Positions 1,552 through 29,666 of a stretch of DNA of 32,000 nucleotides are shown in pieces (the first letter of the stretch is position 1; each line of letters starts with the position of its first letter). Under the pieces are notes generated by a model that was not told where the DNA came from, ran no database searches, and saw nothing but the letters and a program-made list of their open reading frames with translations. Origin of the DNA: Nocardioidaceae bacterium (lineage in GTDB: Bacteria; Actinomycetota; Actinomycetes; Propionibacteriales; Nocardioidaceae); the NCBI GenBank assembly GCA_035690495.1, contig DASSKK010000067.1, forward strand, positions 1 to 32,000. Direction: 5' to 3'. Made by a program: the position numbers and the translations under genes.

Positions 1552-1606
1552 CACAGCGCCGCCCATCCGACCACCTCCACGCAACTCCAGAGACGAGGCG
1601 ACGCAC

Positions 1607-6788: not shown

Positions 6789-6791
6789 GCC

Positions 6792-7328
6792 GTGGCCGCT
6801 GGGTCGTCCCCGACCACCCCGCCCGTCATCCTGGTCGCCGGCGTCGGGAACATCTTCTGCTCCGACGACGGCTTCGGGCCCGCGATGGCCAGCCGGCTGG
6901 GCGCGCGTGCCTTCCCCGGGGGGGTGAGCGTGGTCGACTACGGGATCCGCGGCCTACATCTGGCCTACGACCTGCTCGACGGGTACGACGCACTGGTGCT
7001 CGTCGATGCGATTCCGGCAACGCTCTCTGGAAGTGGGCCCGGTGAGGTGTGCGTGCTGGAGGTCGACACCGGCGCGCCCGGCGCGCCGCCCCAGCCGCGC
7101 CGGTTGGACGCGCACAGCATGGACCCGGTCGCCGTACTCACCGAGCTGAGGCGGCTGGGCGGCACCCCACCCCCGACCTACGTCGTCGGTTGCGTGCCGC
7201 ACACCACCGAGGAGGGCATCGGGCTGTCCGAGCCGGTGACTGCAGCACTTCCGGAGGCCGAGCGCACCGTCTGCGAGCTGCTCGACCTGCTCACCGCACC
7301 GACCGTGCACGAAGCGAAGGAGTGCTGA
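6792..7328 (+). CDS. hupD: Hydrogenase maturation endopeptidase (HupD/HyaD/HybD family)
   Basis: VILVAGVGNIFCSDDGFGPAMASRL ... VVDYGIRGLHLAYDLLDGYDALVLVDA matches the Ni-protease family signature (GxGNxxxxDDGxG, conserved D and H). Confidence 0.9.
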   Translation: MAAGSSPTTPPVILVAGVGNIFCSDDGFGPAMASRLGARAFPGGVSVVDYGIRGLHLAYDLLDGYDALVLVDAIPATLSGSGPGEVCVLEVDTGAPGAPPQPRRLDAHSMDPVAVLTELRRLGGTPPPTYVVGCVPHTTEEGIGLSEPVTAALPEAERTVCELLDLLTAPTVHEAKEC

Positions 7329-7330
7329 CG

Positions 7331-7579
7331 ATGTGCCTGGGCATCCCCGGTCAGGTGGTTGCGATCCCCGACGGTTTCGCGGGCCAGATCGCGCTCGTCG
7401 ACGTCCAAGGGGCCCGGCGCAACGTCAACGTCGGCATGCTCGACGCCGTGCCTGCCGCGGGCGATTGGGTGCTGATCCACATGGGCTTCGCGATGGAGGT
7501 CGTCGACGAGCAGCACGCCCGCGAGGCGCTCGCCGGGCTGGAGATAATGGGGCCTGGAGTGGGGGCTGCCGATGATTGA
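7331..7579 (+). CDS. hypC: Hydrogenase assembly chaperone HypC/HupF
   Basis: MCLGIPGQVVAI... with the essential N-terminal Cys2, and GDWVLIHMGFAMEVVDEQHA. 82 aa. ATG 7331 lies within ORF 7049..7579. Confidence 0.92.
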   Translation: MCLGIPGQVVAIPDGFAGQIALVDVQGARRNVNVGMLDAVPAAGDWVLIHMGFAMEVVDEQHAREALAGLEIMGPGVGAADD

Positions 7580-8399
7580 GACTGCGACTGCGGCGCGGCG
7601 GCGGGTCCAGGTGTCGGGGCCGGTGCTGTTCGCCCGATACGCGTTCCCCCCGAACTCGCACGGCTTCTGCGGACCGAACGACTTCCACGCGTTCTTCGAG
7701 TACGGCGTCGCCGGCGCCGGAGGCGAGGCGGACAACGGCCTGCGGGCGATGTCCCAGCAGTTTGCCGGCGCCTGGCCCTATCTCCAGCTGATCGCCGACT
7801 CGACCGGGCTGCCCGATCCTCTCGACCGGCGCGTCGTCGAGGCGTACTGGGTCGGCAGCCGGCGCCTGGACATGGTCTCCACCCGCGCGGTGGGTGACTC
7901 GATGCAGGAGCGGTTCCGGCACATGGTCGGGCCGCGGTTCGGGGACCTGACCGAGAGCGTGCTGGCCGGCGGAGTGCCGCACCACAGCTTTGCGGTGTTC
8001 TGCATCTACCCATGGACCGGGCTGCTCAGCGACCGCCGGAAGGCTCCGCAGGCGTTGACCGTGCTGGACCGCTGCCGGATCCGCTGGGGACGGGTGCTTG
8101 CCGTGGACGGGGACCAAGTCGTCGTCGAGTCGCGGGCGCTGACCTGGGACGGCCGGTGTCTCGGCATCGGCGAGCCGGCCAAGGAGACCGTCGTACGCGC
8201 CGTGGACGGCGTCGGCATGGTCGACCCGCCGGAGGTCGGGGACTGGGTGTCGCTGCACTGGGAGTGGGTGTGCGACCGGCTGACCGAAGCCCAGGTCGCC
8301 CAGCTCAAGGCCTTCACGATGCGGCACCTGAAGATCGTCAACGGCGGCAACCTGCACTCCGCCGGCTCACGCGGACCCGCCGCCCTCCTCGAAAGTTGA
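7572..8399 (+). CDS. Conserved hypothetical protein (275 aa). N-terminal domain unknown, C-terminal half HypC-like.
   Basis: ATG 7572 overlaps the hypC 3' end by 8 nt. The C-terminal segment DRCRIRWGRVLAVDGDQVVVE...GDWVSLHWEWVCDRLTEAQ parallels HypC MCLGIPGQVVAI...GDWVLIHMGFAMEVVDEQ. Confidence 0.75.
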   Translation: MIETATAARRRVQVSGPVLFARYAFPPNSHGFCGPNDFHAFFEYGVAGAGGEADNGLRAMSQQFAGAWPYLQLIADSTGLPDPLDRRVVEAYWVGSRRLDMVSTRAVGDSMQERFRHMVGPRFGDLTESVLAGGVPHHSFAVFCIYPWTGLLSDRRKAPQALTVLDRCRIRWGRVLAVDGDQVVVESRALTWDGRCLGIGEPAKETVVRAVDGVGMVDPPEVGDWVSLHWEWVCDRLTEAQVAQLKAFTMRHLKIVNGGNLHSAGSRGPAALLES

Positions 8400-13784: not shown

Positions 13785-15053
13785 TTGCTGCGCAGCCTCC
13801 TCCTCGACCTGCGTCCTTTGGAGACCCGGGCCTTCCGGCACTGGTGGCTGGGCTCGGCGCTGTCCATGTTCGGCACCCAGCTCACGTCCTTCGCGTTGCT
13901 GTACTACGTGTGGGTGCGCACCCACGATGCCGCGTTGGTCGGCGCAGTGGCAGTCGCCGAGGCGGTCGCCACGATCGGGGCTGCGCTGTTCGGCGGCTCG
14001 CTGGCCGATCGCCTGGACCGCCACCGCGTCGTCCTGCTCAACCGATCCGGCCAGCTCGCGAGCTCGCTGGCGCTGGCGGGCATCGTGGTGGTTCCGACCA
14101 GGGCGACGATCCCGCTGGTTTTCGTCCTGGTCGCGGTCTCGTCCGGGTTCGGCGCGTTGGGCGCACCAGCGAACCGCTCGTTCCCGGCGCTCCTGCTGCC
14201 GCCCCGGCATCTCGCCGCGGGACTGGCCCTGAACCGGGTGGCGGGCCAGCTCAGCCTGCTGACCGGACCGCTGCTGGCCGGTGCGATCAGCGCCGCCTGG
14301 GGAGTGCAGGTCTGCTTCCTCATCGACGCCGGGACTTTCGCCGTCGCGCTCCTCTCGCTTCTCGCCGTACCTGCCCTGCCTCCCGGCGACGACGGAGCGA
14401 CCGGTCCGCGGTTGCGCGGGATCCGCGGCGGCGTACGCCTCGTCGTCGGCTCCCCGGTCCTGCTGGGAGCATTCGCCACCGACATCGCCGCAACCGTGCT
14501 CGCCATGCCGGTTGCCCTCTTCCCGGTCATCAACGACCAGGAGTACGGCGGGTCCGCCCTCACCCTGGGACTGTTCGCACCGGCGATCGGGCTCGGCGGA
14601 CTGGTGGCCGCTACGCTCTCGGGCCGGGTGACGGCAACCGCGCGGCCGGGGCGGCTGATGCTGGTCTCGGCCGCGGGATGGGCAGCCGCGATCGGGTGCT
14701 TCGGGCTCGGCCACGTGCTGTGGGTCGGACTCGGGTTCCTCGCGATCGCGGGGGCGTGCGACACGGTCACGGTCGTGTCGCGTACGAGCATCGTCCAGCA
14801 CGCCGTACCCGACTCGGTCCGCGGCGGCGTGAACGCCCTCGACTACCTGGTCGGGGTGAGCGGCCCGCAGATGGGCAACTTCAGGGCCGGCCTCGTCGCC
14901 TCGGCGACCTCCGGAGCCACAAGCGCCGCGCTGGGCGGCCTCGCGTCGCTGGCGGCCATCGCCGGGCTGGCCGCCGCACTTCCCGCGCTCAGCCAGGAAC
15001 CCGCACACGCACCCGGGTCAGCGGAAGCGCGGCAAGGGCGAACGCGGCGGTGA
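13785..15053 (+). CDS. MFS transporter (efflux-type, EntS/MFS_3-like), probably co-transcribed with marR
   Basis: About 12 hydrophobic segments. N-terminal FRHWWLGSALSMFGTQLTSFALLYYV. A TTG start lies 6 nt after the marR stop. Confidence 0.85.
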   Translation: MLRSLLLDLRPLETRAFRHWWLGSALSMFGTQLTSFALLYYVWVRTHDAALVGAVAVAEAVATIGAALFGGSLADRLDRHRVVLLNRSGQLASSLALAGIVVVPTRATIPLVFVLVAVSSGFGALGAPANRSFPALLLPPRHLAAGLALNRVAGQLSLLTGPLLAGAISAAWGVQVCFLIDAGTFAVALLSLLAVPALPPGDDGATGPRLRGIRGGVRLVVGSPVLLGAFATDIAATVLAMPVALFPVINDQEYGGSALTLGLFAPAIGLGGLVAATLSGRVTATARPGRLMLVSAAGWAAAIGCFGLGHVLWVGLGFLAIAGACDTVTVVSRTSIVQHAVPDSVRGGVNALDYLVGVSGPQMGNFRAGLVASATSGATSAALGGLASLAAIAGLAAALPALSQEPAHAPGSAEARQGRTRR

Positions 15054-16164
15054 CCAGGAACCCCACGCCGAAGCTCGTCCGGGCGGCGACAAGCCCGACG
15101 AGTACGGCGCCGAGGCCCGTACCTGCGTCGAAACCGACGTTCCAGATCGCGCTGGCCGCGGCGTACTCACTCGCCGCGACTCTGGAGAAGGCAGCCACCA
15201 GGGTGAGGTTCTGCAGACTTCCGTAACCAAGGCCCGCCACCGCCATCGCCGCCAACAGCAATGCCGGGCGGGCACGCTGGCCGGCTCCGAGGAGCGCCAG
15301 CGCGGTGAGCAGCAGGCCGGCGACCGTGACCATCAGCATCGGCGCAAGCATCCGGGCGGCACCATGTCGGTCTGCGACGCGTCCGACCAGCCACCGGCCC
15401 AGCGCGGCGACCAGCCCCAGGACCAGCAGCGCCGTCACCGACAACGCCGTGGAGCCGGTGAACTGGGGCAGGAAGGTCATCAGCGCGCCACCGGCCAACG
15501 TGACCGCGAACAGCACCAGCGCGGGCGGGAGTACGACGCCGAACGAGGCCCACCGTTGGGGCGGGGCTGTGGCGGTCGGCAAGGGACGACCAGGCGCGTG
15601 CAGCACCCGGCCGAGCCGGAGTGCGGCCGGAATGCCCAGCAGCGGCACCGCTCCGATCACGAACACCCACCAGAAGCCGATCCGCTCGGCCACAGCGACG
15701 CTGCTCGGAAGCAGCAGCAGGTTGGGGACCGCGACGCCGAGACCGTAGACGCCAACAGCCTCACCGCGCCGGGCGACTGGCACCAGCTGCGCGACCAGGG
15801 CGCTCCCGGTGACAGTGAGGATCCCGAAGCCGACGCCGCGGACCGCGGACAGGCCCAGCACCGGGGCCAGGCCGTCCGAGAACCCGAGGCACAGCGACGG
15901 TCCACCGAGCAGCAGCATCGACGCCACGAGCGAGGGACCGTGGCCGACGCGGCGCAGCAGCGGCGGAACCAGCGGTTGGGTGGCCACCGTCGAGAGCAGC
16001 AGCACCCCGGTCACCAGTCCGGCGCCGACCGTGCCCTGCCCGCCGTGCACCACCCACAGCGGTGCCACCGAGAACAGCGCCGCATAGCCGCCGAAGCCAG
16101 CCACGGTGAGGAGGGTGAGGGCGAGCATCCCGGGAACGCGCCACACCGGTGACTGCTCACCCAC
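14989..16164 (-). CDS. MFS transporter, last gene of the boxC operon; start uncertain (GTG 16164, GTG 16146 or ATG 16128; the longest ORF reaches 16212)
   Basis: Polytopic hydrophobic protein (LTLLTVAGFGGYAALFSVAPLWV...). GTG 16164 would overlap the acyl-CoA synthetase stop by 8 nt. The 3' end overlaps the convergent MFS gene by 65 nt. Confidence 0.8.
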   Translation of the reverse strand: MGEQSPVWRVPGMLALTLLTVAGFGGYAALFSVAPLWVVHGGQGTVGAGLVTGVLLLSTVATQPLVPPLLRRVGHGPSLVASMLLLGGPSLCLGFSDGLAPVLGLSAVRGVGFGILTVTGSALVAQLVPVARRGEAVGVYGLGVAVPNLLLLPSSVAVAERIGFWWVFVIGAVPLLGIPAALRLGRVLHAPGRPLPTATAPPQRWASFGVVLPPALVLFAVTLAGGALMTFLPQFTGSTALSVTALLVLGLVAALGRWLVGRVADRHGAARMLAPMLMVTVAGLLLTALALLGAGQRARPALLLAAMAVAGLGYGSLQNLTLVAAFSRVAASEYAAASAIWNVGFDAGTGLGAVLVGLVAARTSFGVGFLVTAAFALAALPLTRVRVRVPG

Positions 16165-17974
16165 CGGCAACAGTGACGACTCCCGGGCCCACGGGGTCGG
16201 CGTACAACGCATCCACCAGATGCGCGCGGGTGCGCAGCACCTGGCGCTGGTTGACGTATCCCTTGTCGGTGATCTCCCCCGCGTCGAGGTCGGCCGGACG
16301 GGTCATTACCAGCAGCCGCTGCACGTGCCCGGCCGAGCCGATGGCCTCCTGCGCGGACAGCTGGCTGCCCAGCTCGGCGAGCAGGTCCGGGTCGCGTTCG
16401 ACCTCCGAGTCATTGTCGAGGCTGTGCCCGAGCAGCTTGGCAGCCGCGGCGGCGTCCAGCCACGCGAGCGCGGCCACGTAGTCGCGATGCTCGCCCGCGA
16501 CGACCACGTCGGACACCAGCGGGCAGGCCGACAGCAGCGCCGCGCGCACCGCAGCCACCCGGACGAACGTGCCGGTCGCGAGCTTGAAGTCCTCGGCGAG
16601 CCGGCCGCCGAACAACAGCCCGCGGTTCGGCTCGGCGGGATCGACCGGCTGCACGGCGTCGCCGGTGCGGTAGAAACCGTGCTCGTCGAAGCTCGCGGAC
16701 GTCAGGTCGGCTCGCCCGTAGTAGCCGGGAGTCACCATGGGCCCGCGCACCCGGATCTCGTAGCTGCCGGCCTGCTCCGGCGTGGGAACCAGCAGCAGCT
16801 CGGCGCCGGCCAGCGGGACACCGATGCACCGGGAGTCGTCGTAGTCGAAGTGGGCGGACGTGGCGGCCGGTGCGGTCTCGGTCAGTCCCCACGAGCCGGT
16901 CATGGGTACGTCGTGCCCGGCGGCACTCCTGCTCAGCGACAGCAGCCGTTCTCGGAGCTCGGGGGGCAGCGCGGCAGCGGCGTCGAACAGCAACCGCAAC
17001 CGGGAGAAGAAGCGGCTCGCCAACTCGCTGTCCGCCTCCAGGGCGGGCACGAGCCGGGCGTAGCCGGCCGGCACGTTGAAGTAGATCGTCGGCGGCACGT
17101 CCGCGAGGTTGGCGAGCGTCTTGTCGAACAGGGCCGGCGCCGGGCGGCCGTCGTCGACGTAGATCGTCCCGCCATGGGTGAGCACCAGATTGAGGTTGTG
17201 ACTGCCGCCGAACGTGTGACTCCACGGCAGCCAGTCCACAATCACCGGCCGCTCGTCGGCCAGGAACGGCCAGGACTGGGCGATCATCTGCTGGTTGGCG
17301 GCCAGCATCCCGTGCGTGGTGATCACCGCCTTCGGCGTGCCCGTCGAGCCGGAGGTGAACAACAGCTTCGCGACGGTATCGCCGTCGATCGCCTGGAACG
17401 CGTCCTCGACCGCTTGCCCCGGCTCGGTGCGCACGAGCTCGTCGAGCGGAGTCGCTCCGGGGCGGAGACCGTTCCCGAGGACCACCGGCACCCCGTCGAG
17501 CGCGTCGAGGGCGGGGCCGAACGTCTCCGCGTCCTCGGCGAAGACGGCGCCGGGTTTCACGAGTGCGGTGACCTCGCGCAGCCGGGAGTGGTCGCGCGAG
17601 GCGGTCGCGTAGGCGACGCTGGTCGGTGCGACCGGAACGCCGGCGAGCGTCGCGCCGAGCATCACCAGCAGGTGGTTCACCGAGTTGCCGGACACCACCA
17701 GCAGCGGCCGGTGCGGCGCGAGCCCCCGCTCGAGCAGTCCCTGGCCGATCGCCAGGGCAGCGCGTTCGGCCTCGGCGTACGAGACGCTCCGCCATCTTCC
17801 GGCGGCGTTGCGCTCGGCGGCCAGCAGGTGCTCCGGGTCGCGCCGCACCCATTGGCGGAACGACGTCGTCACGCTGTCCGGATGGTTGCCCAGCGGCTCG
17901 GCGGATCGCAGCAGCAGGCTGCCGTCGTGACGCCGTTCGCACCTGATGTCGGGGACGGCGAACAGCGTGCTCAC
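16157..17974 (-). CDS. AMP-dependent acyl-CoA synthetase (about 605 aa, feruloyl-CoA-synthase-like long form)
   Basis: AMP-binding motifs LLFTSGSTGTPKAV, SWGLTETAP and YRTGD, plus the C-terminal GEITDKGYVNQRQV. GTG 17974 overlaps the amidohydrolase stop (GTGA). The 92-aa extension in the track is Arg-rich. Confidence 0.9.
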   Translation of the reverse strand: MSTLFAVPDIRCERRHDGSLLLRSAEPLGNHPDSVTTSFRQWVRRDPEHLLAAERNAAGRWRSVSYAEAERAALAIGQGLLERGLAPHRPLLVVSGNSVNHLLVMLGATLAGVPVAPTSVAYATASRDHSRLREVTALVKPGAVFAEDAETFGPALDALDGVPVVLGNGLRPGATPLDELVRTEPGQAVEDAFQAIDGDTVAKLLFTSGSTGTPKAVITTHGMLAANQQMIAQSWPFLADERPVIVDWLPWSHTFGGSHNLNLVLTHGGTIYVDDGRPAPALFDKTLANLADVPPTIYFNVPAGYARLVPALEADSELASRFFSRLRLLFDAAAALPPELRERLLSLSRSAAGHDVPMTGSWGLTETAPAATSAHFDYDDSRCIGVPLAGAELLLVPTPEQAGSYEIRVRGPMVTPGYYGRADLTSASFDEHGFYRTGDAVQPVDPAEPNRGLLFGGRLAEDFKLATGTFVRVAAVRAALLSACPLVSDVVVAGEHRDYVAALAWLDAAAAAKLLGHSLDNDSEVERDPDLLAELGSQLSAQEAIGSAGHVQRLLVMTRPADLDAGEITDKGYVNQRQVLRTRAHLVDALYADPVGPGVVTVAGG

Positions 17975-18837
17975 GGCGTCGCTCGGTTGATGCCGGCGTA
18001 CACCCGCGCCGCGTTGCCGCCGAGGACCAGCCCGGCGGTCTGCTCGGACAGGCCGAGGCCGACCACGTCGGCCGCGTTGCGTGCGGTGCCGGGCACGCCC
18101 GGCCAGTCGGTGGCGAAGATCCACTTGCGGGCCAGCCGGCTGAGGTCGTAGCGCACGTAGTACTCCGGCAGCCGCTTCGGCGGCAGGCCGGACAGCTCGA
18201 TCCAGACGTGCTCGTAGGACATCGCGAGGAACGCCGCCGCGTCGTACCACCAGCCGCGGCCGCCGTGCGCGAGGACGACGTCGAGGGTCGGGAAGTCGCG
18301 GATCACCGGCAGCAGCAGCTCGGGGTCGGCCAGCTCGTTCATCGAGCCGGGGAACGTGCTGGTGCCGCAGTGCACCACCAGAGGGACGTGCCGCTCGACC
18401 AGCACCTGATACGCCGGGTAGAGACCGGCGTCGTCACAGCGGAACCCGCCGTGCACCGGGTGCAGCTTGAGCGCGGCGGCGCCCTGGTCGAGCTGGCGGC
18501 GCACCTCGTCGGCGACCGGGAAGTGCAGGTGCGGGTTGACGTTGGCGATCGGGCGGAACCGCGCCGGGTTCTGCTCCACGATGGGCAGCAGGTCCTCGAA
18601 GCGCTGGATGCCGGTCGCCTTGGGGCTGTACTCGCAGAACAGCAGCGCGACGTCGACGCCCTGCTCCTCGAAGAGCTCGTCGAGCCGCGCCGGGCGGGGT
18701 ACGCCGTCCGCGTCCCACACGTCCTCGAGGATCCCCTCGGGGCCGAAGTCGCGGGCCCACTCGATCCAGGCCGGCGCCAAGGTCGGGAGCACCGGCACGT
18801 GCACATGGGCGTCGACGAGCAGGTGGCCTTCCAGCAT
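17971..18837 (-). CDS. Amidohydrolase-2 family metal-dependent hydrolase/decarboxylase (TIM barrel)
   Basis: HxH motif LVDAHVHVP, then KLHPVHGG, VVHCGTS, LAHGG and ATDWP (terminal Asp). ATG 18837 shares 1 nt with the ferredoxin stop. The track ORF 17971..19146 fuses it to an out-of-frame reading of the ferredoxin gene. Confidence 0.88.
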   Translation of the reverse strand: MLEGHLLVDAHVHVPVLPTLAPAWIEWARDFGPEGILEDVWDADGVPRPARLDELFEEQGVDVALLFCEYSPKATGIQRFEDLLPIVEQNPARFRPIANVNPHLHFPVADEVRRQLDQGAAALKLHPVHGGFRCDDAGLYPAYQVLVERHVPLVVHCGTSTFPGSMNELADPELLLPVIRDFPTLDVVLAHGGRGWWYDAAAFLAMSYEHVWIELSGLPPKRLPEYYVRYDLSRLARKWIFATDWPGVPGTARNAADVVGLGLSEQTAGLVLGGNAARVYAGINRATP

Positions 18838-19193
18838 CAGCCGGCCGCCTGCCCCGGCTCGACGGTCCAGCCGGCCACGAGCGGCGTGTCGACGCCGACC
18901 TCGCCCAGCTTGGCGGCTCCGCCCGGCGCGCCCAGCGGCTCGGCACGGCCGGGCAGCGCCTCGGTGAAGAACCGCCGGTTGTCCTCGACGAACGCGGTGT
19001 CGTCCTCGGCGACCCGGCGGTCCTGGCTGATCGCCTCGACGGGGCAGACCGGCTCGCAGGCGCCGCAGTCGATGCACTCCTTGGGGTTGATGTAACTCTT
19101 GCGCTCTCCCTCGTAGATGCAGTCCACCGGACACTCGTCGACGCACGACTTGTCGTTCACGTCGATGCAGGCGCTGGCGATGACGTAGGGCAC
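18837..19193 (-). CDS. 7Fe ferredoxin ([3Fe-4S][4Fe-4S], actinobacterial FdxA type)
   Basis: PYVIASACIDVNDKSCVDECPVDCIYEG and CIDCGACEPVCPVEAI. GTG start preceded by GGAAGGGAG. Confidence 0.92.
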   Translation of the reverse strand: MPYVIASACIDVNDKSCVDECPVDCIYEGERKSYINPKECIDCGACEPVCPVEAISQDRRVAEDDTAFVEDNRRFFTEALPGRAEPLGAPGGAAKLGEVGVDTPLVAGWTVEPGQAAG

Positions 19194-19233
19194 TGCGCTC
19201 CCTTCCTGGGCTCCGTCTCCGGGACTTGTCGAG

Positions 19234-20268
19234 CTACACCGGTTGCGACTCCGGAGCCGGCATCTCGCTGGTGTGGCCGGGGAACAGGTGCGCGTCGGGG
19301 TCGATGTGCACGGCTGCGTTGTTCACCGCGGTGGCCACCTCGCCGAACCCCGTCGCGATCAACCGGACCTTCCCGTCGTACTCGACGACGTCGCCGGCAC
19401 CGAAGACCCCGGGCAGGTTGGTCCGCATCGCGCTGTCGACGACCAGGTGCCGGTTGTCGTGCATCTGCACACCCCATTCGCGCATCGGGCCGAGGCTGGC
19501 CTTGAAGCCCAGCGCCGCGACGACGCGCTGGCACGCCAGCTCCAGCGGGGCCGGCTCGCCACGGACCGCGATCGTCGCTCCCGCGACGGTGCCGTCGCCG
19601 TTCAGGGCGGCGACCTCGGCGTTGACGACGATGCGCACGCCCGTCTCGCGCACCTTCTCCACGGTGCCCGGCTGCGCGCGGAACCGCTCCCGCCGGTGCA
19701 CGAGCGTCACCGACGACGCAAGCGGCTCCAGCATCAGGCACCAGTCGAACGCGCTGTCACCGCCGCCGACGACGAGGACGTCGCGCCCGGCGTACCCCTC
19801 GACGTCGGTGACGAAGTACTCCAGCCCACGACCGAGGAAGTCCTCCCCGGCCGGCAGCTGACGCGGGCTGAACGTGCCGATCCCGCCGGTCACCACCACG
19901 GCCCCGCAGTCCACGACGTTGCCGGTCGAGGTGACCACCCGCATCCGGCCGTCGTCGCGGATGTCGAGGGTCTGCGCCTCCTGGTCGAGGAGGTACGTCG
20001 GATGCGCCGACGCGGCCTGCTCGAACAGCGCGGCGACCAGATCCCTGCCGAGCACGGTCGGAAAGCCGCCGACGTCGTAGATCTGCTTCTCGGGGTACAT
20101 GGCGCTGACCTGGCCGCCGACCTGGCTCAGCGAGTCCACGACGCCGACGCTGAGGCCACGCACGCCGGCGTAGTAGGCACCGTAGAGCCCGACGGGGCCG
20201 GCCCCCACGATCAGCACGTCCACGTCGGTCGAGCCCACGCCGTAGGTCGAGCTTGTCGAGACCATCAC
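19234..20268 (-). CDS. Thioredoxin-reductase-like ferredoxin-NADP+ reductase (YumC-type FNR)
   Basis: FAD-binding DVLIVGAGPVGLYGAYYAG, SQVGGQVSAMYPEKQIYDVGGFP, and NAD(P)-binding VLVVGGGDSAFDW. The start (GTG 20268 or ATG 20265) overlaps the boxC stop. Confidence 0.9.
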   Translation of the reverse strand: MMVSTSSTYGVGSTDVDVLIVGAGPVGLYGAYYAGVRGLSVGVVDSLSQVGGQVSAMYPEKQIYDVGGFPTVLGRDLVAALFEQAASAHPTYLLDQEAQTLDIRDDGRMRVVTSTGNVVDCGAVVVTGGIGTFSPRQLPAGEDFLGRGLEYFVTDVEGYAGRDVLVVGGGDSAFDWCLMLEPLASSVTLVHRRERFRAQPGTVEKVRETGVRIVVNAEVAALNGDGTVAGATIAVRGEPAPLELACQRVVAALGFKASLGPMREWGVQMHDNRHLVVDSAMRTNLPGVFGAGDVVEYDGKVRLIATGFGEVATAVNNAAVHIDPDAHLFPGHTSEMPAPESQPV

Positions 20269-21983
20269 ACCCGCCCGAAGTCGTAGCTGCCACGCCGGCC
20301 GGACCCGAACCGGCGCAGCGCGCCGTCCGGGCCGGAGGCGTTCGGTCGCACGAAGACCCAGTTCTGCCAGGCGCTCAGTCGCCCGAAGATCTTGGTCTCG
20401 ATCGTCTCCGGGCCGGCGAACCGGCAGTTCGCCTCCATCCCGGTCAGCGCGTCCGGAGAAAGCGACGCCCGTTCCTCGGTGACGATCCGCAGCTCGTCGG
20501 TGAAGTCGATGTCGTCGAGTGCCATCGTCACCAGCCCGGCCTCCTCCGCGGCGGCGGCGTCCAGCGGCTCGTCGATCCGGCTGCGCGCAGCGGCGAGTCC
20601 GTCGTCGTCGCCGTAGAACCGGGTCGCCAGCCGGGACAGGCCGTTGCTCATCGGGAACAGACCGTCGTTGCTCGCGGTCAGCACGATGCGTGCCGGCTCC
20701 GCGTCCGGGTCGACGTCCTCATAGACCCCTTCGAGCATGTACTGCCGGTCGCAGGCCAGCCCGAGCTCGGCGAGCAGACCGCCGAAGCACGACCCGGGCT
20801 CGACCACCGCGAGCAGGCTGCGGCTCGTCACGTCGAGGCGTTTGAACGTGCGCTTGAGGTAGTGCACGACCTCGTGCACGAGCCAGTCCCGGCTAACGAG
20901 CTCCCGCAGCTGGGCGTCGTACGCCAGCACCCTGTCGAGGTCGCCCGTGATGCGCAGCAGCCAGGTGCCGAGCTCGGGCTCGTTGGTGCGCAGCCGCAGG
21001 ATCGCGTCGTCGAGCTCACGGGCGAGCGCGAGCGGCCAGTAGTCGACGCCTTGCGCGAGGACGCCGGCCGCACCGCCAGGCGGATCTTCGTTTGGACCGC
21101 GCACGGTGAGGTCGACCCGGCGTGCGTCCCGATCCAGGTGGGCGGTCAGGTGCGGGTAGCTCAGGGCGTCGTCGGTCTCGTGGCGCTGCAGCGGCGTGAG
21201 GCTGACTCCTCGCTCCCCCGGCAACCGGTTCGACGCCGATGCCGCGGCGCGGGCGCGCTCGCGCAGGCGCTCGTCCCAGCTGTTGCGGGGCACGGTGGCG
21301 TCCACGAGTCCCCAGCGCACCGCGGTGTCGCCGCGGTAGCCCTCGGCTCGCGTGGCGAACAGGTCCGCGCGGTCCTTGCGCACGTGCCGCTTGTCCACCA
21401 CCCGGGTGAGCCCGCCCGTCCCCGGGAGCACGCCGAGCAGCGGCACCTCGGGCAGCGAGACGGTCGAGGAGCCGTCGTCGACGAGCACGATCTGGTCGCA
21501 GGCGAGCGCCATCTCGTAACCACCGCCAGCCGCCGAGCCGTTGAGTGCGGCGATCCAGGTCTGCCCCGAGCTCGCGGTGGCGTCCTCGATGCCGTTGCGC
21601 GTCTCGTTGGTGAACTTGCAGAAGTTGACCTTCCAGGCGTGCGGCGAGCAGGCGAGCATCCGGATGTTCGCGCCGGCGCAGAACATCTTCTCCAGGCCGC
21701 CGGTGAGGACCACTGCCTTCACCTCGGGGTGCTCGAAGCGCAGCCGCTGGACGAGGTCGTGCAGCTCGATGTCGACACCGAGGTCGTAGGAGTTCATCTT
21801 CAGCTCGTAGCCCGGCATCAGGCCGCCGTCCTCATCGACGGCCAGGGTGGCGGTGGCCACCTCCCCGTCGACCTCGAGTCGCCAGTGCCGGTAGCCGGCC
21901 GGGTCGGTGTCGAAGTCCACCTTCGGGACGACCTGCTGCTCGGCTACCGGCTCTGCGGCCTGGTCGACGTGCATGGCGGTCAT
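20265..21983 (-). CDS. boxC: Benzoyl-CoA-dihydrodiol lyase / 2,3-epoxybenzoyl-CoA dihydrolase (BoxC, double crotonase fold)
   Basis: 572 aa. The blocks KMNSYDLGVDIELHDLVQRLRFEHPEVKAVVLTG, HAWKVNFCKFTNETRNGIED and SLPEVPLLGVLPGTGGLTRV match BoxC of Azoarcus as I recall it. RBS AGAGAGGTG. Confidence 0.9.
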   Translation of the reverse strand: MTAMHVDQAAEPVAEQQVVPKVDFDTDPAGYRHWRLEVDGEVATATLAVDEDGGLMPGYELKMNSYDLGVDIELHDLVQRLRFEHPEVKAVVLTGGLEKMFCAGANIRMLACSPHAWKVNFCKFTNETRNGIEDATASSGQTWIAALNGSAAGGGYEMALACDQIVLVDDGSSTVSLPEVPLLGVLPGTGGLTRVVDKRHVRKDRADLFATRAEGYRGDTAVRWGLVDATVPRNSWDERLRERARAAASASNRLPGERGVSLTPLQRHETDDALSYPHLTAHLDRDARRVDLTVRGPNEDPPGGAAGVLAQGVDYWPLALARELDDAILRLRTNEPELGTWLLRITGDLDRVLAYDAQLRELVSRDWLVHEVVHYLKRTFKRLDVTSRSLLAVVEPGSCFGGLLAELGLACDRQYMLEGVYEDVDPDAEPARIVLTASNDGLFPMSNGLSRLATRFYGDDDGLAAARSRIDEPLDAAAAEEAGLVTMALDDIDFTDELRIVTEERASLSPDALTGMEANCRFAGPETIETKIFGRLSAWQNWVFVRPNASGPDGALRRFGSGRRGSYDFGRV

Positions 21984-22084
21984 CGGGACACCTCTCTGGT
22001 GGGGACACTCAATACTCTACGCAACCCGCGCACACCGTCAACAGTTTGTAGACTGTGCACCGTTCGGCGCAGGAAGGAGACTCG
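21984..22084. promoter_or_regulatory. Divergent boxC/paaX control region with an imperfect inverted repeat GCACAccGTCaAC...GTaGAC-TGTGC (22030-22059)
   Basis: 101-bp gap between divergent starts. The imperfect palindrome is seen directly. TAGACT (22049-22054) is -10-like. GGAAGGAG precedes paaX ATG 22085. Confidence 0.3.
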
Positions 22085-22954
22085 ATGCCCGGTGGCGGAG
22101 CAGACCACCCGCCCGAGCCGTCGGCCCGTCGGCGGGCGCTCGGCTCCGCCAGCGCACGCTCCCTGCTGCTGACGGTTCTCGGCGAGTTCGTGCACCCGCG
22201 CCAGGAGCGGGTGTGGACCGCGACGCTGCTGGAGGCGCTGACTGCCCTCGGCGTGGAGGAGAAGTCCGCGCGCCAGGCACTGGCACGTACGGCGAAGGAG
22301 GGCCTGCTGGTCTCCTCCCGTCACGGCCGCCGGGTGCTGTGGACGCTGACCGAGGACGGTGGCCGGCTCCTCGAGGAGGGCACCCGTCGCATCTACGGCT
22401 TCATGCGCGAGCGTCACCCGTGGGACGGGACCTGGCTGGTGCTCAGCGTGGTGATCCCGGAGGCGCAGCGGCAGCTCCGCCACCGGCTGCGCACGCGGCT
22501 CACCTGGCTCGGGCTCGGCTCGCCGAGCTCGGGGCTGTGGGTCAGCCCGGACGCCACCAAGGCGCGCGACGTACACGTGGCGCTCCGACAGCTCGGCCTG
22601 GAGAAGCAGTCGTTCGCGTGGACCGGTCCCGCGACCGGCATCGGCGACGAGGGTCGGCTGCTCACGCGCGCGTGGGACCTGGTCGACGTCGAGGACCGTT
22701 ACCTCGCCTTCCTGGAGGGGTTCGAGTCGCGCGAAGCCGAGACACCCGGCGATGCGTTCGTGGCGCAGGTGCAGATGGTCCAGGAGTGGCGGCGCTTCCC
22801 GTTCCTGGACCCGGACCTGCCCGTCGAGCTGCTCGACCACGACTGGCCCGGCGCCCGGGCCGCTGCGACGTTCCACGACCGGCACGCCCGTTGGCACGCA
22901 CTCGCCCAGGCCGAGTGGGACCGCCTCGACGCCTCCCCCGGCGCCAAACCCTGA
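22085..22954 (+). CDS. paaX: PaaX-family transcriptional repressor
   Basis: N-terminal wHTH SLLLTVLGEFVHPRQERVWTATLLEALTALGVEEKSARQALARTAKEGLL, and PaaX C-terminal domain FVAQVQMVQEWRRFPFLDPDLP. ATG 22085 has a strong RBS. Confidence 0.88.
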   Translation: MPGGGADHPPEPSARRRALGSASARSLLLTVLGEFVHPRQERVWTATLLEALTALGVEEKSARQALARTAKEGLLVSSRHGRRVLWTLTEDGGRLLEEGTRRIYGFMRERHPWDGTWLVLSVVIPEAQRQLRHRLRTRLTWLGLGSPSSGLWVSPDATKARDVHVALRQLGLEKQSFAWTGPATGIGDEGRLLTRAWDLVDVEDRYLAFLEGFESREAETPGDAFVAQVQMVQEWRRFPFLDPDLPVELLDHDWPGARAAATFHDRHARWHALAQAEWDRLDASPGAKP

Positions 22955-23066: not shown

Positions 23067-24380
23067 TCAGGTGGATGCCGACCGCGTCAGCTCAGCGAGT
23101 GCCAGTCCGCGGATAGACGCGTCGAGCACCTCGACGGTGTGAGCCAGGGGCATCGGTCTCCCGGCGCGCTCGAGGGCTGCGCCCACCTGCATCAGGCAAC
23201 CGGGGTTGGCGGTGACAAGCAGGTCGGCGCCCGTGGCCAGCACGTTGCCGGCCTTCCGGTCCCCCAGCTCACGCGCCGGTTCCGGGTTGATGATGTTGTA
23301 GATGCCCGCCGAGCCGCAGCACAGCTCCGACTCGGCGATCTCCCGAAGCTCGACCCCCGGGATAGCAGCGAGCAGGCTGCGCGGCTGACGTCTGACTCCC
23401 TGCGCATGGGCGAGGTGGCACGCGTCGTGGTAGGCGATGGTCACGTCGAGCCGGTGCCGGGGCGCGACCGGCTCCAGCTCGGTGAGGATCTCCGAGACGT
23501 CACGCACCTTCGCCTCGAAGGCACGGGCACGGTCGGCGTACGCCGGGTCGTCGGCCAGCAGGTCGGCGTACTCCTTCATCGCGGAGCCGCAGCCGGCCGA
23601 GTTGACCACGACCCGGTCGACGCCCGCCGCCTCGAACGCGTCGACCAGCGCCCTGGCGTATCCCTGCGCCTCGGACTCGCGCCCGTTGTGCGCCGACAGC
23701 GCCCCGCAGCACCCCTGGCTCTTCGGCATGATCACGTCGCAGCCCTCGGCGGCGAGCACTCGGGCGGTGGCCGCGTTGACGCCCGGGAAGAACTCGCGTT
23801 GCACGCAGCCCGTGAGCATCCCCACCACCGCCCGGCGCTGCCCCTGGGCGGGAACCCGTTCGGGGAGCCTGTCCCGACGTCCGAGTCGAGGAGCCAGCCG
23901 CTCCATGGCGGCCAGCTGCGGTGAGAGCCGTTCCAGCAGGCCCGTGCGTCGCAGCAACCGGTCCAGGCCGCTCCGCTGGGCGCCGCGGAGCGGGCCGCGC
24001 AGCAGCCGGAGCCGGCGCGGGTGGGGGAAGAGCGAGAACACCAGGCCGCGGACCGCCTTGTCCTTCTCGTCACGCTCGTGGTGCCGCTCCACCTGCGCCC
24101 GCGTCGCTCCGATGAGCTTGTCGTACTGCACGCCCGAGGGGCATGCGGTCACGCAGGCCATGCAGCCCAGGCAACGGTCCCAGTGCTGCACCATCGAGTC
24201 GCTCATCGGCTCGCCCTCGAGGCCCTGCTTCATCAGGTGGATGCGTCCGCGCGGGGAGTCCATCTCCTCGCCCCACAGCACGTAGGTGGGGCAGGTCGGC
24301 AGGCAGAAGCCGCAGTGCACGCAGTCGTCGACGAGCGCCGGGTCGGGTGGCCGGTGGTCGTCGAACGCGGCGGTCGTCAT
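23067..24380 (-). CDS. glcF: Glycolate oxidase iron-sulfur subunit GlcF
   Basis: Two 4Fe-4S motifs ([29 protein letters not shown]) plus two CCG domains ([14 protein letters not shown]). ATG 24380 shares 1 nt with the glcE stop. Confidence 0.9.
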
Positions 24381-25684
24381 CAGATCCCTCCCACGAAGCG
24401 GCCGGGCGCGAGCCGTCGCCCGGGGTCGAACTCGTGCTTGACACGGCGCATCAGGTCCAGGCCGGAGACCGGACCCCAGGTGTCGACCTCCTGCTTGACC
24501 TCGCTCGCCGCGTCGAGCACCACGAGACTGCCCCCGTGGGCCGTGCAGGTGTCGCGGAGACGGCCGACTGCCTCGCGGACCGCCTCGACGGGGCAGTCGG
24601 GCGCGATTGCGCCGTACACCACGCCGACGCCGGCCGAGCCGCGCAGGGTCACGGGTGCGCCAGGTGTGTCGCGGGCCGCGGCGAGCACAGCGGGCAGCCC
24701 GGACAGCGCGAACGTGAGCTTGAGCGCGGTCGCTCTCGCACCAATGGCATCCACCGTCGTATCCATCCAGGGGTAGCTTCCCCACCACTCCGGCGGGGTC
24801 GGGTCCTCGGTCACCGCATCGCCGAGAAGCTCGAGCGCCGTGGCCGTTCGGCCGGCGACCCCTTCGGGGATCCCGGCCAGCTGCACGGTCAGCGTCCCCG
24901 CACCGCGCGACGGCCAGTCGACCTCGACCGCGGCGGGCACCACCTGCGCGTGCAGGACCGCCTGGGCGACCTGGTAGGCGTGGTCGGCGGACTCGATCGG
25001 CACACCGAGGTGGCGCCGCTCGGCGGGCAGCGGATGCAGCCGGAAATGAGCGTCGACCACGACTGCCAGGGTGCCGAACGATCCCACCATCAGCTTGCCG
25101 AGGTCGTAGCCGGCGACGTTCTTCACCACCCGGCCGCCGGCCTTGGCGACGACTCCGTCGGCGCGCACGACGGTGATGCCGATCAGCAGGTCCCGCGGGG
25201 TGCCGACTGCAAGCCGGGTGGGACCGCTGGTCGCGGTCGCCAGGGTGCCTCCGATGCTGGCGCCGGGAACCGTCTCGTCGACGGAGAGTCGCTGGCCCTG
25301 CTCGGCCAGGACCTTCTGGAGGTCTGCGAGCCGGGTGCCCGCCTGTGTTGCTGCCACGAGGTCGCCGGCGGCGTGGTCGAGGACCTGGTCCATGCCGCTG
25401 AGATCGGCGATCACGTCGGCGCGCTCCGGTGGACGGCCCCAGGTCAGCTTCGTCCCGTGACCGCGCACGACCACGGCCAGGTCGTGCGCAGCACACGCGC
25501 GCATCAGCTCGGCCACCTGGTCGGCGGTGGTCGGGCTGGCGACCAGGGCGGCCTGCACCCCGTCGACCGCGTCGAGCTCACCGGCATCCGAGGCGGGACA
25601 CGCCGAAGCGACAGCGCGGCGCGCCGCCTCGTCCACCTCCGCCGGTCGAGCCTGTCGAGACCCGGTCTGTGCCGTCGTGTTCAT
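24380..25684 (-). CDS. glcE: Glycolate oxidase FAD-binding subunit GlcE
   Basis: FAD_binding_4-type region VVVRGHGTKLTWG, VKNVAGYDLGKLMVGSFGTLAVV. ATG 25684 shares 1 nt with the glcD stop. The track extension upstream overlaps glcD. Confidence 0.88.
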   Translation of the reverse strand: MNTTAQTGSRQARPAEVDEAARRAVASACPASDAGELDAVDGVQAALVASPTTADQVAELMRACAAHDLAVVVRGHGTKLTWGRPPERADVIADLSGMDQVLDHAAGDLVAATQAGTRLADLQKVLAEQGQRLSVDETVPGASIGGTLATATSGPTRLAVGTPRDLLIGITVVRADGVVAKAGGRVVKNVAGYDLGKLMVGSFGTLAVVVDAHFRLHPLPAERRHLGVPIESADHAYQVAQAVLHAQVVPAAVEVDWPSRGAGTLTVQLAGIPEGVAGRTATALELLGDAVTEDPTPPEWWGSYPWMDTTVDAIGARATALKLTFALSGLPAVLAAARDTPGAPVTLRGSAGVGVVYGAIAPDCPVEAVREAVGRLRDTCTAHGGSLVVLDAASEVKQEVDTWGPVSGLDLMRRVKHEFDPGRRLAPGRFVGGI

Positions 25685-27140
25685 CAGAACACCTCGGCCA
25701 GACCCTGCTGCTGCAGCGGGTGCGGCTCCTTGTGCCGGCCGGGCACCTCGCCGCAGAGCCGAGGGGTCGGGTAGATCTTGCCCGGGTTGGACACGCCCGC
25801 GGGGTCGAACGCGCAGCGGATCAGCTGCATGGTGTCCAGGTCGGCGTCGTTGAACATCTTCGGCATGTACGCCGCCTTGTCGATCCCCACCCCGTGCTCG
25901 CCTGTGATCGAGCCCCCGTGGCCGATGCACAGGTCGAGGATCTGCCCGCTCACCTTCTCGGCTGCCTCGCCGGCGCCCTCGACCCCGTCGTCGAACAGCA
26001 CCAGCGGATGCAGGTTCCCGTCACCGGCGTGGAAGACGTTGGCCACCCGCACCCCGGAGGTCTGCGACAGCTCGGCGATCCCCCGGAGCACCTCGGGCAA
26101 CGCGGTGCGCGGGATGACGCCGTCCTGGACGATGTAGTCGGGGCTGATCCGTCCCATCGCCGCGAACGCCGACTTGCGGCCCTTCCAGATCAGCGCCCGA
26201 TCCTCCGGGTCGGTGGCGACCCGCAGCTCGAAGGCCGCGTTGTCGCGGCACAGCCGCTCGACCTCGTGGTACTCGTGTTCGACCTCCACCGCGGCGCCGT
26301 CCAGCTCGACCACCAGCACCGCACCTGCCCCTTCGGGGTAGTTGCAGCGCACCGCGGCCTCGGCCGCCTCGATCGACAGCGCGTCCATCATCTCGATGGC
26401 TGCCGGAACGATGCCCGCAGCGATGATCGCCGAGGTGGCGGCGCCGGCCTCGTCGGTGGAGGCGAACCCGGCCAGCACCGTGCGGATCTGCTCGGGGTCG
26501 CGCACGAGCCGGACGGTGACTGCGGTGACCATCCCGAGTGTTCCCTCCGAGCCGACCACCGCGCCGAGCAGGTCGTAGCCCGGTGCGTCGGGGGCCATCG
26601 TGCCCAGCTGGACGATCTCGCCCTGGGGGGTGACCATCTCGGCGCCGAGGACGTGGTTGGTGGTGAAGCCGTACTTCAGGCAGTGCGCCCCGCCGGAGTT
26701 CTCCGCGACGTTGCCGCCGATCGAGCACACCTGCTGGCTCGACGGATCGGGCGCGTAGTGGTAGCCGTACGGCGCAGCGGCGCGGCTGACGTCGAGGTTG
26801 ATCACCCCCGGCTCCACGACCGCGCGCTGGTCCTCACGGCGTACCTCGCGCACCGCCCGCATCCGGGAGGTGACGATGAGTACGCCGTCCGCGCGCGGAA
26901 GCGCACCGCCGGACAAGCCGGTGCCGGAGCCACGGGCCACGAAGGGCAACCCGTGCTCGGCGCAGGCCCGGATGATCGTCGCGAGCTGCTCGGCGGTCTC
27001 GGGCATCACCGCCAGCCCGGGCGTCACCTTGTAGTAGGCGAGGCCGTCGCACTCGTAGGTGCGCAGCCGCGCGTGATCGGTGATCACGGCGTCGGCCGGC
27101 AGGATCTCCAGCGCCACCCGGGAGACCGCCTCGAGAGCCG

Positions 27141-27144
<4 letters not shown>
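25684..27144 (-). CDS. glcD: Glycolate oxidase FAD-linked subunit GlcD
   Basis: [25 protein letters not shown], and a C-terminal FAD-oxidase domain. The start overlaps the malate synthase stop (ATGA). Confidence 0.93.
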
Positions 27145-28745
<1,601 letters not shown>

Positions 28746-28777
28746 GTGCTCCTCCTGTGCTGTCCTCTGGGGTGGGG

Positions 28778-29521
28778 TCAGTCCTCGGTCATGGGCAGGC
28801 TGCGGAATGTGAAGCGGATGTGGTCCTCGACGAGCGCGGGGGCGGAGTCGGCGTCGCCGGCCCGGATCGCGTCGAAGAGGCGATGGTGCTGGGCTCGCAG
28901 CTGGTCGCGCAGCGGTCTCCAGTCGGGCAGCCGCTGCAGGCCGCGCAGAATCGGGGCGTGCATCGCGTCCCGGATCGCGATCGTCATGTCGGCGACCAGC
29001 CGGTTCCGGCCGGCCTCGGCCACCGCGACGTGGAAGGCAGTGTCCCACCGGTTGAACGTCTGCTGGTCCTCGGTCCCGTCCATCTGCTCCAACGCCTCGT
29101 CCATCGTCGCGCAGTCGGCGTCGGTGGCCCGCTGGCAGGCCAGCCGGATGCTGTGGCGTTCGAGCATCACGCGCGCCTCCACGACGTCCTCGAGCGGGAA
29201 GTTGGCCAGGGCAACGTGCAGCCGCACCAGCCGGGTGAGTGCCTCGCTGGGCATCGCCGCCACGGTCGTGCCGCTGCCCGGGCCGACCCCGACGGCCGAG
29301 CGGAGTACGCCGTGCGCCTCGAGCGCCCGGATGGCCTCCCGCACGGCCGAACGGCTCACCCCGAGCCGGGGCGCCAGGTCGCGCTCGGAGGGCAGCCGGT
29401 CACCGACCCGCAGCTTGCCCTGGAGGATCTGCTCCTCGATCTGCGCGACGACGAGCTCGTCGGCTCGGCTGCGCTCGACCGGCTGCCAGTCGGGGTCTTG
29501 GCGTCCCGTCAGCCCAGTCAA
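28778..29521 (-). CDS. GntR/FadR-family transcriptional regulator (FCD domain; functional analogue of GlcC/LldR/PdhR)
   Basis: w[34 protein letters not shown], followed by an all-helical FCD-like domain. TTG 29521 is preceded by GGGAGG at 7 nt. Confidence 0.88.
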
Positions 29522-29560
29522 CCCAGAGCCTCCCGTGTCTGCCGCCTGCCGTGCCTGCCC

Positions 29561-29612
29561 TTGACGCTGTGTTCCCGGTCACTCTATCGTCCGATGCAAT
29601 GGTCTGACCATT
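29561..29612. promoter_or_regulatory. Candidate permease promoter TTGACG(29561-29566)-N18-TATCGT(29585-29590), plus a perfect GntR/FadR-type operator AATGGTCtGACCATT (29598-29612)
   Basis: A 7-1-7 perfect palindrome with the TGGT-N-ACCA core typical of FadR-subfamily operators. It is the only such site in the 145-bp divergent gap. Confidence 0.55.
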
Positions 29613-29666
29613 CGACGAGCGGCTTGGCCGTCCACACCGGGCGGTGGTCGACGTCGAGCTTTCGGG

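Follow-up and report, generated by a model that had tools for sequence, protein, structure and literature searches.

A probable actinobacterial-type benzoyl-CoA (box) operon encoding a ferredoxin and a ferredoxin reductase in a Nocardioidaceae bacterium

How would a benzoyl-CoA epoxidase obtain its electrons in an organism whose box genes are accompanied by a ferredoxin and a ferredoxin reductase rather than by BoxA? This question is raised by the first 32,000 nucleotides (positions 1 to 32,000, forward strand; hereafter the window) of contig DASSKK010000067.1, from the assembly GCA_035690495.1 of a Nocardioidaceae bacterium. A first-pass annotation, made from the sequence alone, had described in it a "non-canonical" boxC operon with its own ferredoxin/reductase pair, an amidohydrolase, a CoA ligase, a transporter and a PaaX-type regulator. 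To our knowledge, the box pathway has been worked out in Proteobacteria only. BoxA is treated as a defining subunit, and genome surveys grade clusters that lack it as incomplete. Our searches of the non-subscription literature turned up no account of box clusters in Actinomycetota, of a box pathway lacking BoxA or of box genes controlled by a PaaX-type regulator; the actinobacterial box genes receive incidental mentions alone there, e.g., "boxBC" in UBA5794 metagenome-assembled genomes (MAGs). The analysis described here leads us to regard the locus as, quite probably, the main operon of an actinobacterial-type cluster for aerobic catabolism of benzoyl-CoA, working by the mechanism proposed below.

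Because the window contains about 71% G+C, genuine genes were selected by third-position GC content (GC3) and domain matches, and families were assigned using Pfam and NCBIfam. Six genes on the reverse strand are tightly coupled and form one operon: boxC (20265-21983); fnr (19234-20268), encoding a ferredoxin-NAD(P)+ reductase (FNR) of the thioredoxin reductase (TrxR) type; fdx (18837-19193), encoding a 7Fe [3Fe-4S][4Fe-4S] ferredoxin (Fdx); amh2 (17971-18837), encoding a 288-residue amidohydrolase-2 protein (PF04909, Amidohydro_2, 102 bits); ligL (16157-17974), encoding a 605-residue AMP-forming acyl-CoA synthetase of the Fcs/PRK12582 type, recognized by its AMP-binding domain; and, as the last gene, an MFS transporter (14989-16212; Pfam MFS_1, 89 bits). 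The boxC and fnr genes overlap in the sequence GTGATG, fnr and fdx are 40 nt apart, fdx and amh2 share a single nucleotide (TGATG), and amh2 and ligL overlap at GTGA. The start of the transporter gene is ambiguous, with candidates at ATG 16212 (giving a 56-nt overlap with ligL), GTG 16145 or ATG 16127. GC3 is 0.82-0.92 across all called frames. A promoter scan revealed a single sigma-70-like promoter between 14800 and 23200, i.e., that ahead of boxC, and no terminator-like site was found in the same interval; the six genes were therefore treated as one transcription unit. Divergent from boxC, on the forward strand, is a gene for a PaaX-family regulator (22055-22954), for which the likelier start is ATG 22086, preceded by a GGAAGGAG ribosome-binding site. 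Domain matches and direct reading of the sequence thus bore out all seven genes, and their junctions, at the positions given in the first-pass annotation.

The ring-cleaving enzymes could be assigned with confidence. BoxC scores 841.9 bits on TIGR03222 (cutoff 712.3), is 100% identical to HET7387369.1, and aligns over its full length with Burkholderia xenovorans BoxC (2W3P; E 1e-199). The idea that boxC is an "orphan" with no boxB was overturned by a truncated open reading frame (ORF) on the reverse strand at 31516-31998, cut by the window edge at 32000. It comprises the last 160 codons of boxB, whose product is 100% identical to residues 332-491 of HET7387377.1, a 491-residue BoxB (P0189 in our set) encoded on the same contig of 59,327 bp. 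This protein scores 743 bits on TIGR03225 (cutoff 499) and aligns end to end with the diiron benzoyl-CoA 2,3-epoxidase BoxB of A. evansii (3PER; E 2e-186). BoxC and BoxB are, respectively, 80% and 86% identical to orthologues that stand beside an ordinary benzoate-CoA ligase (BCL) and BoxD. Because both proteins are of equivalog level and close to orthologues from ordinary benzoate clusters, benzoyl-CoA stays the likely ring-cleavage substrate; the entry substrate alone may differ, via LigL and the MFS transporter. No gene for BoxD was found in the 32 kb of the window, although the position that boxD occupies in the nearest relative, upstream of boxB, falls beyond base 32000 here.

We compared the locus with a set of 84 actinobacterial boxC loci, built from 80 genome loci with BoxC relatives, all of them from Actinomycetota, with loci from Epidermidibacterium keratini, the nearest MAG and Nonomuraea gerenzanensis added. 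The proteins of the window were mapped onto these loci, and genes were counted over the 54 loci (window included) having at least 8 kb on either side of boxC. A boxB gene was present in 53 of the 54, the one exception being the window itself, where boxB lies 9.5 kb off. A PaaX-family gene adjacent to boxC and a BCL of the TIGR02262 type were each present in 43, Amh2 in 23, Fdx in 16 and FNR in 15. Less frequent were a GNAT acetyltransferase (10/54), BoxD (9/54), DUF6158 (7/54) and a 4HBT thioesterase (6/54), while LigL occurred in two loci and the MFS transporter in one, i.e., the window alone. The pairing of FNR with Fdx was seen in Nocardioides, Nonomuraea, Actinomadura, Actinospica, Amycolatopsis, Nocardia, Streptomyces and Epidermidibacterium. 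A comparison of gene neighborhoods had been proposed in the first-pass annotation as a check on its synteny, and the nearest relative (L083; 80% BoxC identity) indeed reads, in order, a 4HBT thioesterase gene, boxD-boxB, a divergent paaX and boxC-bcl-fnr-fdx-amh2-DUF6158. Its ligase scores 533 bits on TIGR02262 (cutoff 375), and its BoxD, encoded directly upstream of boxB, 626 bits on NF008868 (cutoff 444). Relative to such loci, the window has acquired an insertion of glycolate genes, has lost the usual ligase and DUF6158, and has gained LigL and the MFS transporter. Given this recurrence, the supposedly non-canonical gene set is, on gene content, the ordinary actinobacterial box architecture, widespread rather than peculiar to the window; the label "non-canonical" holds relative to Proteobacteria but not among Actinomycetota, where the counts show the set to be standard.

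The cysteines of the ferredoxin follow the pattern of the 7Fe (FdxA) type, C9-x7-C17-x3-C21P ... C40xxC43xxC46xxxC50P, i.e., Cx7Cx3CP followed by CxxCxxCxxxCP, and the protein scores 147.7 bits on the NCBIfam model FdxA_Actino (cutoff 125). The reductase is nearer to YumC-type FNRs than to thioredoxin reductases, its closest match in the Protein Data Bank (PDB) being Bacillus subtilis YumC (3LZW; E 4e-82), with true thioredoxin reductases matching at about 1e-29; in place of the CxxC disulfide of TrxR it has GGGDSAFDW. It shares with other FNRs of this type (YumC 3LZW, Thermus 2ZBW and Chlorobaculum 3AB1) full-length homology, with E values of 4e-82 to 8e-67, and the lack of a redox-active CxxC, but unlike them it is encoded within a catabolic operon, beside a 7Fe ferredoxin and an oxygenase pathway.

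BoxA, the NADPH reductase with FAD and two [4Fe-4S] clusters, was sought by tblastn using the genuine BoxA of Mycetohabitans rhizoxinica plasmid pBRH01, from its boxR-boxC-boxB-boxA cluster, as query. Neither the window nor any of the 84 actinobacterial loci yielded a full-length BoxA. The sole matches there were between the N-terminal 2x[4Fe-4S] domain of BoxA and the ferredoxin genes of the clusters, at 28-37% identity (29% for the Fdx of the window, the only part of this locus to match); the flavin half of BoxA had no match in the 84 loci or the window, and a scan of the loci for cysteine motifs revealed no BoxA-like ORF. In a plasmid collection there were 12 full-length BoxA matches, all proteobacterial and none in Actinomycetota. 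The complete 11.85-Mb replicon of N. gerenzanensis, which carries boxB, paaX and boxC-amh2, was not among the BoxA matches either. A published account presents BoxA as a reductase carrying two [4Fe-4S] clusters, whose contact with BoxB is transient and of which small amounts suffice (PMC4498308). It is therefore plausible that a soluble ferredoxin and a separate reductase replace it, as the recurrent linkage of their genes with boxC would also suggest, the Fdx being the predicted direct electron donor to BoxB.

The divergent regulator has the three domains of PaaX, all above their cutoffs: a winged helix-turn-helix at the N terminus (PF07848, 62 bits), a middle domain (PF20803, 65 bits) and a C-terminal domain (PF08223, 66 bits). 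Its score on TIGR02277, the equivalog model for the phenylacetate regulator, is 158 bits (cutoff 264.6), and it is therefore a member of the PaaX family but not a phenylacetate equivalog. The BoxR of pBRH01 had no match in any actinobacterial locus; where a regulator of the BoxR/BzdR type might have stood, a PaaX-family gene is present instead. The boxC promoter (22041->22014, reverse strand) consists of a -35 element TTGACG and a -10 element TAGAGT separated by a 16-nt spacer, and both are bracketed by an inverted repeat, CTAC-N27-GTAG.

When the upstream regions of boxC were aligned, this repeat proved to be part of a conserved block. A strict pattern, C-N-ACA-N5-TTGAC-N15-19-GT-N-GA, has a single match ahead of boxC in the window (22016-22051) and in 42 other loci, with one off-target match in 2.1 Mb. 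In an alignment anchored on the -35 element, which takes in 65 of the 84 loci, CTAC is found in 64 of the 65 promoters at -10 to -7, and GTAG in 54-65 of the 65 at +21 to +24; the two arms are exact reverse complements, 27 nt apart. The window agrees with the conserved promoter/operator pattern at all invariant positions. The related pattern CTACA-N24-28-TGTAG was observed 23 times, versus 1.2 in shuffled sequences, and it also precedes boxB (L008 and L015), a BCL gene (L075), amh2 (L061) and a LigL gene (L115).

For comparison, the site of E. coli PaaX is TGATTC(N27)GAATCA (PMC9493321). The actinobacterial regulator resembles PaaX of E. coli and Pseudomonas in its three-domain architecture and in adjoining a CoA-dependent epoxidase pathway, and resembles that of E. 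coli in having a predicted operator with two short inverted half-sites about 27 bp apart over a promoter. It differs from them in its half-sites (CTAC/GTAG), in its predicted control of box rather than paa genes, and in falling below the TIGR02277 cutoff. The divergent PaaX-family protein is thus the obvious candidate for the repressor, and 22014-22051 (reverse strand) its predicted operator; by analogy, we infer that benzoyl-CoA would be its effector. According to a 2026 survey, paaX is rarely found outside the context of a phenylacetate ligase, and the paa clusters of Actinomycetes mostly use PaaR (PMC13186573).

Amh2 recurs as a conserved accessory in the box clusters of Actinomycetota. It has no NCBIfam match, and its family is small: of 1.84 billion proteins, 88 representatives match at E<=1e-30, and the source annotations of these relatives are all generic. 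The AlphaFold2 (AF2) model of Amh2 has a pLDDT of 88, and with Foldseek its closest structure was the uncharacterized BB4693 (3IRS; TM 0.72), the same protein being nearest in a sequence search of the PDB. The next matches, with TM about 0.6, were ACMSD, LigJ, LigW and LigY together with amidohydrolase-related dimetal oxygenases. Amh2 keeps the HxH on strand 1, the histidines on strands 5 and 6 and the aspartate on strand 8, i.e., the usual ligand set of the hydrolases and decarboxylases. Like PF04909 enzymes (ACMSD, LigJ, LigW, LigY and LigI) and BB4693, it is a TIM barrel with the same metal-ligand positions, but it differs from them in its low identity (14-20%), in its length (288 versus about 330 residues) and in belonging to a small family of its own with no close characterized member. 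The amh2 gene usually follows the ligase gene, although in N. gerenzanensis it stands directly after boxC. Fusions of Amh2 with DUF6158 (P0265, 436 residues) and with a GNAT acetyltransferase (P0401, 437 residues) were found, and box loci repeatedly carry GNAT and DUF6158 as separate genes as well. Hydrolytic rescue, a lactonase-like activity, or a deacylase role paired with GNAT may be considered as leads only.

LigL scores 677 bits on PRK12582 (cutoff 777) and 69 bits on the benzoate-CoA ligase family (benz_CoA_lig, TIGR02262; cutoff 375). In its length of about 600 residues and its full-length alignment it resembles the Fcs-type synthases of PRK12582 (from Ralstonia, Burkholderia and Pseudomonas). 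It differs from them in falling below the cutoff of that model, in sitting in a box operon and in having no ech/vdh neighbors; feruloyl-CoA synthase (Fcs) would be expected beside a hydratase/lyase or aldehyde dehydrogenase gene, and the window has no such neighbor. We surveyed the contexts of 80 metagenomic relatives of LigL, of 49-68% identity. About ten of them belong to box clusters or follow PaaX genes, in some cases with an ordinary BCL (L085 and L090), and those in box clusters or beside PaaX genes include relatives with 60-64% identity. Other contexts included a CocE-like S15 hydrolase, PhaC, and genes resembling acetophenone/acetone carboxylase with a thiolase and an FNR-Fdx pair (L094). 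Since the contexts are so heterogeneous, they define no firm substrate for LigL; they fit a predicted ligase for an aromatic acid that ends as benzoyl-CoA.

Subunits resembling acetophenone/acetone carboxylase stand beside relatives of LigL in L094 (1-12111), L100 and L132, with a thiolase in L094 and L132, and L094 carries PaaX as well as the FNR-Fdx pair; these contexts suggest a route from acids of the benzoylacetate type to benzoyl-CoA. An inverted repeat of the form CTACAAAG...GT[CG]G was present upstream of 19 of 73 LigL relatives. In six loci (L114, L117, L119, L124, L127 and L129) a repeat CTACAAAGAGATGCC...TTCTTGTCG is nearly identical and lies about 60-90 bp upstream of LigL, and the same six also carry the CocE-like S15 hydrolase and a 479-residue protein with no Pfam match. 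This repeat is an operator related to the box operator, yet distinct from it. The MFS transporter matched no specific NCBIfam subfamily, and neither the other 84 box loci nor the 80 LigL loci contained a homologue of it.

From these data the following mechanism can be proposed for the operon. The MFS transporter would import an aromatic acid, of which LigL would make the CoA thioester, either benzoyl-CoA itself or a C6-C3 precursor that would be converted to benzoyl-CoA by beta-oxidation. Electrons from NAD(P)H would pass via the FAD of the TrxR-type FNR to the 7Fe ferredoxin and thence, one at a time, to the diiron center of BoxB, a chain that would do the work of the fused FAD/2x[4Fe-4S] BoxA of Proteobacteria. 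BoxB would epoxidize benzoyl-CoA, BoxC would hydrolyze 2,3-epoxybenzoyl-CoA to 3,4-dehydroadipyl-CoA semialdehyde and formate, and a BoxD encoded elsewhere would oxidize the aldehyde. The PaaX-family protein is predicted to act as a repressor of the operon, bound to the widely spaced inverted repeat that covers the -35 and -10 elements, and to be released by an aryl-CoA, most likely benzoyl-CoA. Amh2 would be a conserved metal-dependent accessory of the hydrolase type.

The boxB and paaX genes are separated in the window by about 8.5 kb of genes for glycolate/lactate utilization (23067-31337), a module foreign to the box system that encodes glcEF-like and glcD proteins, malate synthase, a GntR/FCD regulator and a lactate-family permease (Pfam/NCBIfam). 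In relatives, the distance from the end of boxB to paaX is 10-45 bp, or about 0.6-0.9 kb with a single GNAT gene between them. The inserted module looks complete and is placed exactly at the boxB-paaX junction; we looked for flanking repeats around it and found none. A Marmoricola MAG (DATDNR010000149.1; L166, 384-1937) has a DUF222 gene at the same junction, its operon being reduced to boxC-fdx-amh2, and the junction therefore seems prone to rearrangement in Nocardioidaceae.

Several observations weigh against a benzoyl-CoA operon in which BoxB is served by the FNR-Fdx pair. Half of the well-flanked loci (27/54) have none of FNR, Fdx and Amh2, which means that the pair can be dispensed with and that those organisms must make do with housekeeping partners. 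A boxA gene may lie outside the window, upstream of boxB or elsewhere in this MAG. The 12-kb contig L094 has an FNR-Fdx pair together with LigL, a thiolase and the acetophenone/acetone-carboxylase-like genes, and no boxB is in view. In addition, a BCL of the usual type was not found in the 32 kb, LigL being the sole ligase there, and most relatives of LigL occur in contexts other than box clusters. The L094 locus could also be taken to mean that the pair feeds another acceptor, e.g., Amh2 acting as a dimetal oxygenase within a three-component monooxygenase, or that it serves the benzoyl-CoA regulon as a redox module of general use. The base shared by fdx and amh2 would agree with this, as would the presence of the oxygenases SfbO, AibH1H2 and DitZ among the Foldseek matches of Amh2 (TM about 0.6) and the dependence of amidohydrolase-related oxygenases on partners of the ferredoxin type (PMC13154177). 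However, their known partners are Rieske ferredoxins (PMC13154177), hydrolases and decarboxylases match the Amh2 fold equally well or better, and 12 loci have Amh2 but not FNR, while four have FNR but not Amh2. Moreover, Amh2 lacks the C-terminal D-x-P-H-x-[D/E] loop that defines the amidohydrolase-related dinuclear oxygenase (ARO) superfamily, having instead D244-W-P-G-V-P, a stretch in which D, W, P, G, V and P do not vary among 30 orthologues. An oxygenase consisting of FNR, Fdx and Amh2 was therefore rejected, and we consider it quite unlikely that the pair serves another acceptor in place of BoxB or is such a general module.

The ligase raises a different doubt. The first-pass annotation had suggested that the operon may act on a substituted benzoate or another aryl-CoA rather than on benzoate; on this view it would degrade a different aryl-CoA, from a substituted benzoate or a hydroxycinnamate, and the specificity of BoxB and BoxC would have shifted. 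The sole ligase is indeed Fcs-like: the NCBI pipeline PGAP names it (HET7387365.1) "feruloyl-CoA synthase", and proteins annotated as feruloyl-CoA synthases in Proteobacteria share 43-46% identity with it, one of them being encoded beside hca (3-phenylpropionate/cinnamate dioxygenase) genes. Its coexistence with an ordinary BCL in L085 and L090 would suggest a non-redundant substrate, and the MFS gene is found at this locus alone. Against this, both ring-cleaving enzymes pass the equivalog cutoffs, align along their full length with 2W3P and 3PER and are close to their orthologues from clusters with an ordinary BCL and BoxD, the boxC promoter and operator are of the standard box type, and the contexts of LigL elsewhere, with the CocE-like S15 hydrolase or the acetophenone/acetone-carboxylase-like genes and a thiolase, also converge on benzoate or benzoyl-CoA. 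A shift in the ring-cleavage substrate is thus unlikely. It is very improbable that the locus is a rearranged and decaying remnant, split by the 8.5-kb insertion between boxB and paaX and no longer supporting the pathway, even though it lacks the BCL gene and the DUF6158 of its nearest relatives and a similar disruption, the DUF222 gene, occurs at the same junction in the Marmoricola MAG. The six ORFs are intact, with the GC3 values given above and coupled start and stop codons, BoxB has its full length of 491 residues, and the promoter and operator agree with the conserved pattern at every invariant position. A benzoyl-CoA operon of actinobacterial type therefore remains the preferred reading. 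Of the first-pass interpretation, the FNR-Fdx pair as a stand-in for BoxA, the divergent PaaX-type regulator, the different class of the ligase (rare even among actinobacterial box clusters) and the lack of an assigned step for the amidohydrolase were supported by the comparison with other genomes; its non-canonical character among Actinomycetota and a changed substrate for ring cleavage were not supported.

How does the locus compare with the box systems already described? The BoxB and BoxC of the window are orthologous to those of Azoarcus/Aromatoleum evansii, B. xenovorans LB400 and Mycetohabitans pBRH01 (L084), with identities to the Mycetohabitans proteins, by tblastn, of about 57% for BoxC and 61% for BoxB. 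The logic is common to both, i.e., CoA ligase, epoxidase, dihydrolase and then BoxD, and in both a regulator gene lies upstream of boxC, although boxR is co-directional in pBRH01 (boxR-boxC-boxB-boxA, with bcl divergent) and paaX divergent in the window. In place of BoxA, the window has the TrxR-type FNR and the 7Fe ferredoxin as separate genes, and in place of the XRE-type BoxR, a PaaX-family regulator. Where the proteobacterial clusters have an alpha/beta hydrolase and DUF4863, the actinobacterial ones have Amh2, with or without DUF6158 or GNAT. The window alone departs further, with an Fcs-like ligase and an MFS transporter for BCL and with boxB displaced by 8.5 kb. The ring-cleaving enzymes are thus orthologous to known ones; the differences from the described system lie in the apparent source of electrons, in the regulator and in one accessory enzyme.

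Some neighboring genes deserve mention. A gene for an Fe-S protein resembling the beta subunit of formate dehydrogenase adjoins two Actinomadura box clusters (L033, 6195-7169; L024, 5378-6343); BoxC releases formate. Beside the box genes of two close relatives (L003, 500-4472; L009, 15609-16172) are an ABC transporter of the branched-chain amino acid type and a PaaY-like hexapeptide-repeat protein, both of which are missing from the window. The MFS gene of the operon converges with an EntS-like MFS gene (13785-15053) of the opposite strand; the two overlap by 65 nt at 14989-15053, and no terminator-like site was found between them. Farther away, at 499-8399, is a [NiFe]-hydrogenase cluster comprising the small subunit (499-1551), the large subunit (1607-3397), DUF5947, DUF6084, a HycI-type protease and DUF6390; at 5305-6790, long ORFs with no Pfam match are found on both strands.

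Our results point to a large group of soil Actinomycetota in which boxB and boxC occur but boxA does not; in its stead these organisms often have a ferredoxin and a reductase of their own, along with a PaaX-type repressor and a conserved hydrolase-like gene. Tentatively, and with more doubt than attaches to the assignment of this single locus, it may be proposed that Actinomycetota run a BoxA-independent box pathway, with a chain from FNR via Fdx to BoxB, a benzoyl-CoA-sensing PaaX paralogue acting at a CTAC-N27-GTAG operator, and an undescribed enzymatic or regulatory step contributed by Amh2. If this is true, the way in which the potential for aerobic benzoate degradation is called in metagenomes would need correction, and a testable set of redox partners would be at hand for a diiron epoxidase. 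Regulation by the PaaX family would then reach beyond phenylacetate, and Amh2 would represent a new enzyme family open to assignment.

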